From a virus (Duplodnaviria; Heunggongvirae; Uroviricota; Caudoviricetes): 64,000 nucleotides of DNA. The stretch lies in IMG/VR virus record IMGVR_UViG_2698536484_000026, one strand, 5' to 3'. Shown piece after piece: positions 8,011 to 31,018 of this stretch; the first letter of the stretch is position 1; each line of letters begins with the position of its first letter. The notes under the pieces were generated by a model. The model saw only the letters and a program-made list of their open reading frames with translations, had not been told where the DNA came from and searched no databases. A program made the translations under genes and the position numbers.

Positions 8011-8505
8011 ATGGCACGTCAAACCTATTTCACTTCTGCAACTAAACGTCCTCGTTCTTTACGTCAAATTTTGGCCGAATTATTTAGCGGTCGTGTTATG
8101 TCACGTCTTGATGAACTAGAGACTACCGTTCGGTTGCTGAATGAACGTTTAGATAATCAAGCGTCAGTTGTTGCGAACGTGGGGGCGATTGTTGCCTCTG
8201 GTTCTTCACGCGAAGCGAAAAGTACACGGCCTTTAGTGAAGGAGAAAAACAACAAGGACAGTTCGAATGGAAAATTTTCAAAGAAAGAGGCTGAAACCAA
8301 TGGCCTACGTTCTCATTATAGTTTCACTGGCGACGGTAGCCGTTCCAGCCGGCCAGAGCCTTTTGATGCCGGATTCATCCATCACCACACCTTCGTCGAC
8401 GACAATTACCACCACTCCAGTGGAGCGTCCTGTCACTCTGGATGGGATGGCGGTGGATGCGATACCTCAAGTTCATCCAGTTACTCAGGATCATGCTGTG
8501 ACTAA
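8011..8505 (+). CDS. Hypothetical protein (C-terminal part questionable; overlaps next ORF in another frame)
   Basis: Good RBS and coiled-coil-like N-terminus; C-terminal 60 aa looks like out-of-frame low-complexity translation. Confidence 0.25.
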   Translation: MARQTYFTSATKRPRSLRQILAELFSGRVMSRLDELETTVRLLNERLDNQASVVANVGAIVASGSSREAKSTRPLVKEKNNKDSSNGKFSKKEAETNGLRSHYSFTGDGSRSSRPEPFDAGFIHHHTFVDDNYHHSSGASCHSGWDGGGCDTSSSSSYSGSCCD

Positions 8506-26994: not shown

Positions 26995-27344
26995 ATATGG
27001 GCGATTTCAAGAAACGCCTGAAGGAAAGAGCCGAGATGGTCAGAAAGCAAAACGCCTCTTCTGTCATCAGATACGCAAGGCAGTTTAGTCGCAACAACAA
27101 ATCAGTTGAGGAAAAGATCCTTAGCGTAATCGTGCGATAATTATTAAGGCCATCAGCATTGGTGGCCTTAAATGACCATCTTGTTTCCCGCAGGCTAAAA
27201 ACACCAACCTCTTACCTCCAGGCAACCGACAAACCCACCTGTTCCCGTCCGGCTACCGCAACTTTCCACTTTGACGCCTTATTCGTACAACGATAATTAA
27301 CACCAACAAGAAAACAATTTGTTATTTACGATAAGGAATTAATC

Positions 27345-27827
27345 ATGAATTTTATCGCTACTGTAAACGCACCCGCACATGGCAATATCGCTGTAACGTT
27401 CTCTGACATTGAAAAACGAGTACTTGGTGCATGGCGCGACAATGAGACGGTAGAACTGTCAGCACAAGAAAAATGCATTATTGCACGCGACATCATTGGC
27501 AATCGTCGTTACTCGCGGGTATTTGAGAAAGCGTATGTGGTAAATTCTGGATTCGGAACGTTCGTCTTTCCGGTGCGCTCCGGGCGATTCTGCCAGTCCA
27601 AGCTGATTGAGTTCGCTACGCAGATTTCTGTCTGGATTAAAACTCAATCGTCGTTCAAATTTTCCGACGATGAAGCAGTATCGCAGGGGATGCGGATCGC
27701 CAACAATGCAATTAAATGCAAAAACATTACGTATACCGCTGGCGTTGATACATGGAAACTGTTTTGCGCTAACTTTATGCTGAATGTATACGCAAGCAAC
27801 CGCATCCACATCCTTGATGGCGTGTAA
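27345..27827 (+). CDS. Hypothetical protein
   Basis: Preceded by CAAGAAAACAATTTGTT motif; hairpin 27830-27858 follows. Confidence 0.4.
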   Translation: MNFIATVNAPAHGNIAVTFSDIEKRVLGAWRDNETVELSAQEKCIIARDIIGNRRYSRVFEKAYVVNSGFGTFVFPVRSGRFCQSKLIEFATQISVWIKTQSSFKFSDDEAVSQGMRIANNAIKCKNITYTAGVDTWKLFCANFMLNVYASNRIHILDGV

Positions 27828-27869
27828 CTGAGAAGAGGGCCAGAAACGGCCCTTTCTCTATAGCCACCA

Positions 27870-28040
27870 GCTGCCGCAGGGAAATTTTCAGAAGCGGCGA
27901 GGAACGTATTCATGAGCCGACGGGGAACGGCCAGGATTTTTTCGGGAAACGGCTGCATTTGCCTTTGTGTAGAAAAAAACATCGGGAAGCTGGTGGAATC
28001 CAACCAGCGGTTGTCGGACAGGTGAGCGGGGAAAATTATG
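27870..28040. repeat. Iteron-like direct repeat array B (GGGAAACGGC-type units)
   Basis: Six degenerate copies (cagggaaatttt, gaggaacg, cggggaacggccagg, cgggaaacggctgcat, cgggaagctgg, cggggaaaatt). Confidence 0.4.
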
Positions 28041-28434
28041 ATGACTTTCGTCACCTGAGACATCCAGATTTCTTTCGTAGCATAATCACATACGTGATTA
28101 AGTGGTGTGATTATGTGAAAAATCACGCGCACATAATACGCGAGCGGATACGGAACAAAACAAAATGCCGATCCGCGCCGACAAATAAACGCGGATCATA
28201 AAGCAAGACTAAAAGCCAATGATTAACTATGCGCTATAACGCGTTTTAAGCGCGTTAATGTGTTAAGTAATGGGTATGTACTGGCAAGGATATAAAAGCG
28301 CGTCTATGGCGTTATTTTGGCGCTTATTTTTATGTTGTTGGAGTGAGTTAAAGACAATAAAAAACGCGCCATCAATGGCGCGTTATTGTGGAAGTATTGG
28401 AAACGAAAAAAGCGCCCATAGTGGGCGCTCGATT

Positions 28435-28665
28435 TTATTTGTGTAAACTGATTTTAAATCCCATTTCTACGAACGCTTTTAACATTAAAAATATATCAGC
28501 GTCGTTCACGTCTGCTTTTTTTCGCTCCTGGTCGCTCAATAAGTCAATTTTGCGCGTCGTTTCATCTATAAGCTCGACTACGCGCCCAGCGTAACCAGCG
28601 ATCCCAGCGATGCGATTAACATAATATTCATTATGGACGTTAACGCCAGCGATAAGAACAAACAT
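28435..28665 (-). CDS. Hypothetical small protein (AT-rich cassette)
   Basis: Minus-strand ORF bounded by GCGCCCATAGTGGGCGC hairpins. Confidence 0.35.
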   Translation of the reverse strand: MFVLIAGVNVHNEYYVNRIAGIAGYAGRVVELIDETTRKIDLLSDQERKKADVNDADIFLMLKAFVEMGFKISLHK

Positions 28666-28685
28666 GATTAAGCTCCTTAAAAAAA

Positions 28686-28889
28686 TTAAATAGAATTTTG
28701 AAGTTTTCCGATTAATGCGCTTAAACGTAAGTATTCACGTTTGCGCTTGCAATCTCGCTTGCTGTTAAGCAAATCAGAAAACGTAAAATTTAATTGGTCG
28801 CGTTGCGCGATTAAATCATCGATTAATTCTAGTTTATAAGCGCGATACTTTGCGCGATATTCCGCGCGGATCTTGTCATAGCTGACCAT
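28686..28889 (-). CDS. Hypothetical small basic protein
   Basis: Minus-strand ORF in same cassette. Confidence 0.35.
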   Translation of the reverse strand: MVSYDKIRAEYRAKYRAYKLELIDDLIAQRDQLNFTFSDLLNSKRDCKRKREYLRLSALIGKLQNSI

Positions 28890-28938
28890 TTTTCAAAGCT
28901 CCTTTAAAGCGCCCATAGTGGGCGCTTGATTCCATTAA

Positions 28939-29589
28939 TTACGCTTTGAAAGCATCAGCTAAATAATTGTAGAAATCATTTTTAATGAAGCGATATTGCT
29001 GAGTACCAGCTTTTGCACTCCCAGCTCCTTTGACTTTTTCAACAAGTCCAAGACGTTCGCAAAGATTGATCAACTGGTTGGCTTGAGTATAGCCAGCGTC
29101 CAATTTAATTTCACACGCTTTTTTAGCTTCATTCATTAAATCGAAAACAGCGCCATTGGTGAACGTGTCGATCTCGTCGTTAATCATATCGATTAAAGCG
29201 AATACACGAGATCCTGACATATCAGCGACGGAATAAACACATTTACCAGCTTTAATGGATTTAACCAGATAAACCAGTTTTTCCAGTGAATAACTATTAG
29301 TCATTGCATCACGGAAAAATACTTCTGGCGCTTGTTTGCTTGCTTTAATCGCATAGTAGAAAACAGAGCATAATTTTTCGTCTTCTACTGCGTTTACGAC
29401 GTTGTTGATGAAGTAAGCAAGTTTAGTGGTCGCAGCTTGCATATTTGCTTTGTCTGCTTTAGTGTGCGTACCATTTTTATAATGTTCGTTATATGTTTGA
29501 GTTGCCAGATCTGCTTTTTCGCGCAGCTCGTCGGATACAATAGATGCAGCTTCAATGATGGACTTTTTAGAAATGATAATGTTAGCCAT
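28939..29589 (-). CDS. Hypothetical protein
   Basis: ATG at 29589 with AAGGA RBS 9 nt upstream. Confidence 0.45.
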   Translation of the reverse strand: MANIIISKKSIIEAASIVSDELREKADLATQTYNEHYKNGTHTKADKANMQAATTKLAYFINNVVNAVEDEKLCSVFYYAIKASKQAPEVFFRDAMTNSYSLEKLVYLVKSIKAGKCVYSVADMSGSRVFALIDMINDEIDTFTNGAVFDLMNEAKKACEIKLDAGYTQANQLINLCERLGLVEKVKGAGSAKAGTQQYRFIKNDFYNYLADAFKA

Positions 29590-29882
29590 GATAATATCCT
29601 TACGAAAAATTAAAATGAATTTATTTTTTACTGTCGTTAGCCAGCTCGCTTTCGACGAGTTCAATTATCGATACGTGAAAAAAGATTGCAAGTGTTTTTT
29701 TAAATTTTTTGCAGGGGTGAAAGCCCTAGAAATAAAAGAGAGAGCGTCGAAGGTGTTCCCTAAATAAATAATCAATTCGGGCCTTTAACCTTATATATTT
29801 ATACGGGGTGGCATTGAAAGAGTTTTAAATGAATGGCATGTAAAATAATAACCGGACTTAGCCGGTTATTACCCTTATAGAT

Positions 29883-30407
29883 TTAAAATGGAAGGATTCG
29901 TTCAACCCAATCGAAGAAAACAAGTATTTTTCTGCCGTCTTCTAACTTAAGAGTGACCTGGCAAGCATCAACGCCTCTTGACACCCCTTCAATTTCACGA
30001 CCGTCTGCCATGTAGACCCTTATAGATTGGTCGTTTTGATAAGCCTTGCGACATATCGCAAAAAAGTCACGGCGTGATGGCTGATTGTCAACATAGTCTG
30101 GATGTATTGTTAGCCTACCTTTGAACTCGCGAGCAATGCCATCGATTACACCTGATTCAATTGTGCTAATGCGCTCAAGTGGGAGTCTTATACGATTTTC
30201 TTTATCATATGGAAGCGGGCATAAATCTAGCTTATTGCGGGAAGGCATTGTCCCCTGAACGTACATGCAAAACACCTGACCGTCTTCAAGCGTGACTCTT
30301 ACAGGAATGTTGTTCTTCCGCCAGAACATAAGTATGTTTTCAGCATGTTCGTAGTCTCGCGGCCAGACTTCAGCCGGTATGCCGTAGGTGATGTCCGATG
30401 TTCTCAT
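29883..30407 (-). CDS. Hypothetical protein (last gene of three-gene AT-rich operon)
   Basis: Start overlaps stop of upstream gene by 4 nt. Confidence 0.45.
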   Translation of the reverse strand: MRTSDITYGIPAEVWPRDYEHAENILMFWRKNNIPVRVTLEDGQVFCMYVQGTMPSRNKLDLCPLPYDKENRIRLPLERISTIESGVIDGIAREFKGRLTIHPDYVDNQPSRRDFFAICRKAYQNDQSIRVYMADGREIEGVSRGVDACQVTLKLEDGRKILVFFDWVERILPF

Positions 30408-31018
30408 TCTGATACTCTTAGAGGTGTTTTCAGCAACCCAAATTTAAATTCTTTGTTACCAACGACAAAGAAGGGAACCTCAACATAGATTTTTTTATCG
30501 ACGGATTTAGAGTTCGCTGTTTTCTGTATGTCACGAACGATACGTTTTGAGGTATTTTCATCGATAAACAATACCTTTCCACTTGTATTCCCTTCAGCCT
30601 TGGCGTAAGTAACGATAGGGTCTTCATTGCCAACCCTAATGTTTACTTGGCAACCTGTTGTAGCCATTTCATCACAGTAAAGTGTGCCGTCTTGAACTTC
30701 TAAAACAATTCCAGATGGCTTCATGGCTTCGTCAGAGCTTACATTAACGTTTTCTGGTACAGCGGTCCCGTTAATTTGCAACCGTAATCTTTCTTTTCCT
30801 CCATTAAGTATTGTTTCTTCTGCGTTGTCTGAGAATCTGAACCAAACTGGCTGATTCAGACCTCGTGATTTGTATTCTACTACATCTTCGGAGGTAAACA
30901 TGCTGTACGTTTTTTGCATGTCAGAGGCGAAATCTGATAATGCGTTGGCGGAAAACGCCGGGAGGCATATACAAGCAAGGAGTAACGAAAGTTTCATTTT
31001 CATATCATGATAATCCAA
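30404..31018 (-). CDS. Secreted or lipoprotein-like protein of unknown function
   Basis: N-terminal MKMKLSLLLACICLPAFSANA signal peptide with possible lipobox LLAC. Confidence 0.5.
   Translation of the reverse strand: MDYHDMKMKLSLLLACICLPAFSANALSDFASDMQKTYSMFTSEDVVEYKSRGLNQPVWFRFSDNAEETILNGGKERLRLQINGTAVPENVNVSSDEAMKPSGIVLEVQDGTLYCDEMATTGCQVNIRVGNEDPIVTYAKAEGNTSGKVLFIDENTSKRIVRDIQKTANSKSVDKKIYVEVPFFVVGNKEFKFGLLKTPLRVSE

Follow-up and report, generated by a model that had tools for sequence, protein, structure and literature searches.

A three-gene unit with repeated hairpins in an SSU5-family phage-plasmid

We analysed a 64,000-nt stretch of viral DNA assigned to the Caudoviricetes (IMG/VR record IMGVR_UViG_2698536484_000026), referred to here in its whole length as the window, and concentrated on an interval at positions 28,041 to 29,589 that holds three small minus-strand genes, designated geneA, geneB and geneC, together with a short palindrome, P, present in two identical copies. 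The 1.7 kb around this interval matches Escherichia phages CMS-2020a and PhiR41_1 at 95% identity, Cyrano at 94% and Salmonella phage SSU5 at 82%, and the region is present in 787 PLSDB plasmids from Klebsiella, Escherichia, Enterobacter, Yersinia (pMT1), Salmonella (pHCM2), Citrobacter and Cronobacter. On the basis of these phage identities and plasmid matches, we assign the window to the SSU5 family as a predicted Escherichia coli phage-plasmid, in the same family as pMT1 and pHCM2. Phage-plasmids of the SSU5 type have spread widely among clinical Enterobacteriaceae.

The first gene of the unit is geneC (28939..29589, minus strand, 216 amino acids), which is invariably present and always has a copy of P as its next downstream feature. 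Its predicted fold combines a helical N-terminal part with a C-terminal winged-helix domain; a sequence search of the PDB returned no match, and a BFVD fold search returned no significant one. Upstream of geneC, a consensus scan identified a promoter-like site on the minus strand (29664..29691, TTGCAA-16-GATAAT, preceded by an A-tract), which is conserved as CTTG..N..TCGATAAT in 14 of 14 aligned relatives across genera; the match to consensus and this conservation suggest that the site is an active promoter.

The two genes downstream are variable modules. The open reading frame (ORF) of geneB (28686..28889, minus strand, 67 amino acids, PHROG 6145) is missing from Cyrano and many other relatives, and is predicted to encode a basic coiled-coil protein with no evident membrane segment. 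Both in SSU5 (SSU5_119, L002) and in PHROG 6145 it carries the label 'MIT family metal ion transporter CorA'. Since the product has 67 residues and looks soluble, this label is almost certainly a propagated annotation error. The geneA ORF (28435..28665, minus strand, 76 amino acids) belongs to PHROG 1585, and its AlphaFold2 (AF2) model is poor, with a predicted local distance difference test (pLDDT) score of 60. Some relatives carry a further gene, D, a paralogue or allele of geneA with approximately 45-50% amino-acid identity, which cross-matches geneA in tblastn searches and either replaces or joins it. For geneA, geneB, geneC and D alike, no meaningful match emerged from Pfam, NCBIfam or PADLOC. 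The same consensus scan found no promoter-like site in the 49-nt gap between geneC and geneB, in the 20-nt gap between geneB and geneA or beside the copy of P that follows geneA, so that geneA and geneB appear to depend on read-through from geneC.

Each of the small genes is preceded by a ribosome-binding-site box. The geneB box (28896..28908, minus strand) reads AAGCTCCTTTAAA on the plus strand and UUUAAAGGAGCUU on the RNA, and is a direct repeat (D20) common to the geneA box (28670..28682, minus strand, AAGCTCCTTAAAA), which has no copy of P adjoining it in the window. In relatives that lack geneB, the geneA box abuts P directly, and the order P, then UUUAAAGGAGCUU-N-AUG, is an arrangement common to geneA, geneB and D.

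P and T1 have the anatomy of intrinsic terminators

P is a 19-nt sequence, AGCGCCCATAGTGGGCGCT, that can be drawn as a stem of 8 bp with a 3-nt loop or of 7 bp with a 5-nt loop. It forms perfect palindromes of 19-25 nt, with stems of 7-9 bp that include six G-C pairs. Two exact copies occur in the 64 kb, compared with 0.01 expected from 100 dinucleotide-preserving shuffles, and P alone is repeated among the 19 perfect GC-rich hairpins of the window. The terminal copy, P(A) (28411-28429, minus strand), lies 5 nt past the stop codon of geneA. The RNA continues after it with UUUUUUCGUUUCC, which makes P(A) the predicted first intrinsic terminator of the operon. A second hairpin, T1 (28363-28384, minus strand), lies 26 nt downstream of P(A), or 48 nt from start to start. 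Its sequence is AACGCGCCATCAATGGCGCGTT, with the arms AACGCGCCAT-CA-ATGGCGCGTT forming a 9-bp stem, and it is followed by UUUUUUAUUG. Folding of the RNA spanning P(A) and T1 gave -32.3 kcal/mol (z = -6.25). Together, P(A) and T1, each with a tract of six U's, have the make-up of canonical tandem intrinsic terminators.

The internal copy, P(B) (28907-28927, minus strand), has its 19-nt core at 28908-28926, extends to a 9-bp stem and lies 12 nt past the geneC stop codon; RNA folding returned an 8-bp stem. Its immediate 3' context, UUUAAAGGAG (also UUUAAAGG), lacks a full U-tract: on the RNA, P(B) is followed by UUUAAAGGAGCUUUGAAAAAUG, that is, by three U's and then the geneB ribosome-binding site and start codon. 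The same distinction holds among relatives, in which terminal copies of P carry a tract of six or seven U's in 75 of 75 cases and internal copies in every case have 3-5 U's leading into AAGGAG or AAGGAU. Both copies of P sit 5-12 nt past a stop codon, the usual place of a terminator, and we read P as a predicted terminator. Because only three U's follow P(B) and run directly into the ribosome-binding site of the next gene, the internal copies are probably leaky terminators or hairpins that protect an mRNA 3' end.

Other readings of the hairpins were considered and rejected. An RNase III processing site at P or T1 is discounted since the stems are much too short. A bidirectional terminator at P(A) was rejected because the convergent plus-strand gene has its own hairpin (~27836-27859) and because the T-rich flank of P(A) on the plus strand is not conserved, belonging instead to whichever gene adjoins. 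A search of Rfam in permissive E-value mode across 27000-30500 gave no family match and only sub-threshold small RNA hits that reflect the shape of the terminators.

An earlier note on this DNA had described a cluster of GC-rich perfect palindromes that brackets three small genes at a convergent transcription junction. All three palindromes exist, T1 at 28363-28384 (about 28362 in the note) and the two copies of P displaced by 2-3 nt (28408 and 28906 in the note, 28411 and 28908 here). The reuse of one palindrome, given there as 17 bp long, is genuine, and the repeated sequence measures 19 nt. Only geneA and geneB lie between copies of P; geneC is outside, upstream of P(B). The convergent arrangement is borne out as well, with the two units separated by approximately 500 nt of conserved non-coding DNA and the separate plus-strand hairpin.

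Gene content of the slot varies among close relatives

We compared the locus in two samples of relatives, approximately 170 in all. The first comprised 94 viral contigs retrieved by an exact match to P; the second comprised 79 loci retrieved with geneC peptides, independently of P, of which 75 have both flanks. The slot was defined as the interval between a conserved plus-strand gene of 160 amino acids and geneC. Among the 75 geneC-selected loci, the slot contained geneB only in 26, geneA and geneB in 16, geneA only in 16, D only in four, D and geneB in three, and geneA and D in two; the remaining eight slots were empty. The sample selected with P gave the same picture. The earlier note had named synteny of the cassette in all relatives as a finding that would speak against a mobile unit, and the content of the slot is clearly not constant.

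The number of copies of P follows the number of gene units. An empty slot holds one copy, a slot with one gene holds two, and arrays in which geneA and D are arranged as A-P-D hold three (L005, L036, L084, L136 and L140). These arrays join two alleles that elsewhere occupy one and the same slot, and unequal exchange at P would yield exactly such A-P-D arrays.

Turnover of slot content is fast. When loci were clustered at no more than 5% nucleotide divergence in geneC, one cluster contained geneA and geneB in 16 loci, D and geneB in three, geneA in three and geneA and D in one; a second contained geneB in 13 loci and geneA in three; and a third contained geneB in six loci, D in four and an empty slot in one. 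Up to four layouts thus occur within one such cluster, and even clusters at no more than 2% divergence mix geneA-geneB with D-geneB slots.

Copy number also varies where no gene lies between the hairpins. In a divergent Klebsiella lineage, exact 44-nt tandem units of spacer and P are present in two copies in L032 and three copies in L063. A P-like hairpin takes the place of T1 in this lineage, so that as many as four P-type terminators can follow one another with no intervening gene (L013 2906-3031; L032 ~8030-8142; L063 ~1450-1603; L038 11795-12107).

Breakpoints map to the edge of P and to the ribosome-binding-site box

Pairwise comparisons located the ends of the variable units. SSU5, which lacks geneA, runs parallel to the window as far as the final base of P(A), and its sequence resumes directly at the 3' end of geneB. 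In L118, a D-type ORF with 62% nucleotide identity lies inside flanks that are 94-97% identical to the window, with the divergence extending from the edge of P to the start codon and the ribosome-binding-site box. In L136, a unit of P and D occupies the position at which the window has geneB. L128 and Cyrano, which lack geneB, have their breakpoints in the shared box AAGCTCCTT(T)AAA. Since the breakpoints fall at the edge of P and in the ribosome-binding-site box, the joint appears to be composite, reading on the RNA strand as P followed by UUUAAAGGAGCUU.

P is nearly invariant and its loop is recurrently inverted

The 7-bp core of P is invariant in 51 distinct copies drawn from all contexts. 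At the eighth pair, 42 copies have A-U, four have G-U and two have G-C, the last being a compensatory change (L146/L147). Covariation of the outer pairs is weak: the score is 0.082, reached by 5 of 500 shuffles, compared with 0.062 in the shuffles. Relatives keep the stems of T1, and its loop varies or is flipped. T1 tolerates unpaired substitutions that P does not. The strictness of P fits either stronger selection or homogenisation by exchange between copies, and does not discriminate between the two.

In approximately 12% of the copies of P, the loop is reverse-complemented with the stems unchanged (ATAGT in 111 copies, ACTAT in 16), a strong bias to one orientation. The loop of T1 is flipped likewise (AACAAT/ATTGTT and ATCATT/AATGAT), and a third, upstream hairpin, TTAAGGCCACC..GGTGGCCTTAA, also shows loop flips. 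The flips are recurrent, since both orientations were found among backbones no more than 2% apart in geneC. Loop inversion at hairpins is a documented outcome and signature of template switching during replication (PMC8794818). The flips indicate that these palindromes fold as DNA hairpins in vivo, a property that is not specific to P, and their recurrence may be a trace of hairpin extrusion.

The units are confined to one locus per element

In all 75 loci with two flanks, and in all but one of the contexts selected with P, P, geneA and geneB are confined to one slot. A scan of viral contigs for P, including contigs of at least 100 kb, found one cluster of P per contig. An exact scan of 185,579 species genomes returned ten loci, made up of SSU5-like contigs and a few matches in metagenome-assembled genomes (MAGs); this exact-match scan found no P in the enterobacterial chromosomes of the species-representative set. 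By our own calculation, a 19-mer is expected approximately four times by chance in 596 Gb, and the MAG matches come to about that number. We therefore rejected the matches in unrelated phyla (L112-L115) as signs that P has spread.

Exact P followed by UUUUCUUAU also stands after a small tail-module gene, whose product ends in ...GSSAGTYKVS, in two related contigs of an unrelated phage (L015 12915-12933; L102 1472-1490). We set these copies aside as a sign of mobility, given that by our estimate about one chance match to the 19-mer is expected in a collection of this size, a hairpin with a 7-bp stem and a 5-nt loop having only 12 free positions. They may be a coincidence of short GC-rich terminators or the result of an old horizontal transfer, and P appears to behave there as a plain terminator. 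Nor is a new context provided by the geneA homologue on an E. coli contig of 5.2 Mb (P0165), which lies in the same element context.

The geneA family itself has a wider distribution. In 29 records of virulent Pseudomonas phages of the Pakpunavirus type, for example Pseudomonas phage PAK_P2 (L197, 63931-64164), the small early genes include members of the family at 34-38% identity, without P, and we therefore regard it as a widely travelling small phage gene.

These distributions bear on the suggestion of the earlier note that the cassette is a mobile one. A modular nature is evident in the seven combinations of zero, one or two small genes that occur, joined by P. Within the family, no copy of P, geneA or geneB was found outside the slot. 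Because the units are never found elsewhere and only two gene families are involved, the variation is best described as local module shuffling, not as the activity of a mobile element.

A terminator hairpin that may double as a homology joint

With moderate confidence, we interpret P as an intrinsic-terminator hairpin that was duplicated at the 3' end of the operon and also acts as a homology joint for module exchange. The geneC promoter would drive transcription of geneC, geneB and geneA in that order on the minus strand. P(A) with its six U's, and then T1 with six more, would stop transcription before the convergent region, and P(B) would either stop part of the transcripts or protect the 3' end of the geneC message. 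Read-through past P(B) would then express the small genes below the level of geneC. Each small gene would move as a unit made up of the shared ribosome-binding-site box, the ORF and P, and the identical copies of P, which span 19-31 nt with their flanks, would serve as homology joints. The small genes would be deleted, duplicated or swapped when these copies undergo homologous exchange, whether unequal or reciprocal, or replication slippage; the recombining copies could come from the same element or from co-resident relatives, and an emptied slot would keep a single P. We take the A-P-D arrays and the exact tandem 44-nt units as direct signs of exchange between copies of P. The persistent genes of SSU5-group elements include RecA-like and other recombination genes (PMC7969092).

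Several observations weigh against this interpretation. The junction between geneB and geneA is the only one without P, and this is true of all 19 of the 19 loci that combine geneA or D with geneB. The breakpoints of geneB insertion or deletion lie in the ribosome-binding-site box of 12-13 nt and not in P. An invariant core yields no evidence of covariation, and the outer pairs covary only weakly. Breakpoints at the edge of P would also be expected if old alleles of geneA and D were exchanged by crossovers anywhere in the conserved flanks; that the crossovers fall within P rather than elsewhere in these flanks is what we infer. With only two gene families in the slot, differential loss from one ancestral array would explain much of its variation, and 19-31 nt is little homology for recombination of the RecA type. 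In addition, all our statements about transcription, including those on termination efficiency and read-through, are read from sequence.

Much of this would be accommodated if P were a terminator and nothing else, the terminator of geneC having been duplicated as genes were added and its sequence held by purifying selection, with slot content arising from differential loss and from exchange across the flanks as a whole, namely the non-coding region and geneC. P has canonical terminator anatomy, the unrepeated T1 is nearly as well conserved, two conserved flanks are enough for a double crossover, just the geneA/D and geneB families are involved, and the geneB breakpoints lie outside P. We nevertheless consider this account rather unlikely, as it leaves unexplained why three independent joints share an identical 19-nt core and loop when T1 is tolerant of unpaired substitutions, and it accounts neither for the A-P-D arrays nor for the exact copy-number variants of the 44-nt unit of spacer and P, nor for the strict excess of one P over the number of gene units. 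The assertion in the earlier note that the palindromes are not just terminators is thus half right: P(A) and T1 look like textbook intrinsic terminators with six U's, and the reuse of one sequence carries evolutionary meaning.

The note had also proposed an operator. P would in that case be an operator or roadblock palindrome that controls read-through when bound by the winged-helix protein of geneC or by a small cassette protein. Its 7-bp inverted half-sites separated by a 5-nt spacer, a core invariant in 51 distinct copies, the constant adjacency of one copy to geneC and the unchanged sequence of P where geneC is approximately 53% identical are all compatible with protein binding. That last observation cuts both ways, as P stays constant though the candidate protein has diverged to 53% identity. 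No promoter was found near any copy of P by the consensus scan, and the geneC promoter has no P-like half-sites; both copies in the window lie 5-12 nt past stop codons, a post-stop position that, together with the U-tracts, fits a function at the RNA level, and the change of the outermost pair from A-U to G-C (L146/L147) is compensatory. The geneA model (pLDDT 60) is too poor to judge the product as a binding protein. Taking both sides together, we regard an operator as improbable. Less probable still is a site of dedicated structure-specific recombination, comparable to an integron attC site or a target of the IS200/REP type, with each gene and its P moved as a cassette by an enzyme. Such a system would fit small genes that lack promoters, share one orientation and have a palindrome each, an empty site that retains one copy, arrays of one to three units, and loop flips that point to folding of the hairpin in DNA. 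However, no integrase or transposase domain was found in the five ORFs tested around the slot, P is a perfect palindrome of 19-25 nt unlike the long, imperfect attC, gene units and P occupy one locus per element, only two gene families are involved and the geneB breakpoints lie in the ribosome-binding-site box rather than in P.

Comparison with known modular systems

attC sites are imperfect palindromes of 57-141 nt. The slot resembles an integron in its promoterless, co-oriented small ORFs, each with a palindrome, and in its variable number of cassettes. It differs in that no integrase adjoins the array, P is short and perfect, and only two gene families take part.

A moron of lambdoid phages is an additional gene, equipped with a promoter and a terminator of its own, that is inserted between conserved genes, as Juhala et al. 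2000 and Hendrix et al. are said to have described. The modules of the slot are similar in being small accessory genes, present in some relatives only, that lie between conserved genes and carry a terminator hairpin. In contrast to morons, no promoter of their own was found for geneA and geneB by the consensus scan, and one terminator sequence is reused at every joint. Since the small genes appear to lack promoters of their own, we do not class them as classical morons.

P(A) followed by T1 resembles a classic double terminator. Repetitive extragenic palindromic (REP) elements number hundreds of copies scattered over the chromosome, and Newbury et al. 1987 reportedly described the REP in the malE-malF gap as an intercistronic stabilising hairpin. 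By analogy, P(B) could protect the 3' end of the upstream cistron and set differential expression. P is found only at this plasmid locus, whereas REP elements are dispersed over the chromosome.

The closest likeness is to the PeSL (promoter-early stem-loop) of T4-type phages, a repeated intergenic stem-loop motif of approximately 100 bp that includes a sigma-70 early promoter and occurs in approximately 50 copies in hyperplastic regions (PMC2839356, PMC4122927). The mechanism proposed for PeSLs is homologous exchange between copies of the motif (Arbiol et al. 2010, PMC2839356; Comeau et al. 2014, PMC4122927). P, like a PeSL, combines a terminator or attenuator stem-loop with the ribosome-binding site of the next gene; both flank small genes in which close relatives differ, and in both systems a single copy of the motif is kept where the gene is absent. 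A PeSL, however, has a strong sigma-70 early promoter, and none was found in the 49-nt gap between geneC and geneB or beside P(A), the sole conserved promoter being the predicted one upstream of geneC. Conservation extends over approximately 100 bp in PeSLs compared with 19-31 nt for P, and some 50 dispersed copies stand against one to four copies of P at one operon end. Furthermore, the host element of P is a temperate phage-plasmid. Circular excision products (mini-circles) are another feature of the PeSL system, and at this locus they are only a possibility. A genome-wide network of the PeSL kind was rejected because no other hairpin is repeated in the 64-kb window. The comparison suggests that the locus behaves in the manner of a PeSL without belonging to that class. 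It is likewise neither an array of integron cassettes nor a REP element.

A bolder possibility, which we raise tentatively and consider doubtful, is that P and the ribosome-binding-site box form a portable joint dedicated to this purpose, the counterpart of a T4 PeSL minus its promoter, which shuffles small genes by recombination from P to P, possibly through circles of a gene and its P, promoted by extrusion of the hairpin during replication. This would apply across the SSU5 family, including pMT1 of Yersinia pestis and pHCM2 of Salmonella Typhi. If P does act as a homology joint, an idea developed for virulent phages of the T4 type would be extended to temperate phage-plasmids, and the locus would provide a natural example of a terminator hairpin doubling as such a joint, allowing small genes to be lost, duplicated or swapped while their neighbours are spared. 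No new kind of element or regulatory principle is revealed by it. With two gene families and one 19-nt repeat, the slot offers a simple system in which to measure the mechanism.

Flanking regions of the operon

Upstream of geneC lies a full-length FljA-like gene (29883-30407, minus strand; Pfam Flag1_repress, E 5e-81), which has a terminator hairpin to itself (29846-29871). The gene adjoins geneC in nearly all relatives, and the C-terminal part of the FljA-type protein gives a weak Hfq/LSM-like match. This phage-plasmid homologue of a flagellin repressor may act on host motility or on RNA. Between the FljA-like gene and the -35 element of geneC, at ~29700-29800 on the minus strand, three blocks are conserved across genera: TAAATATATAAGG, ATTTATTTAGG(G/C)AACACCTTCGA and TTTATTTCTA(A/G)G. 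They may be regulatory sites of the operon.

On the other side of the slot, the conserved non-coding DNA between the plus-strand gene of 160 amino acids and T1 occupies 27828-28340. It includes the terminator-like hairpin of the plus-strand gene (~27836-27859), which has the form AGGGCC-AGAAAC-GGCCCT followed by T's and shows compensatory variants in SSU5 and pMT1. G(A/G)AACGGC motifs, conserved across genera, are repeated in this region at ~27848, 27892, 27925 and 27945, and may serve as binding repeats for a protein or belong to an RNA gene.

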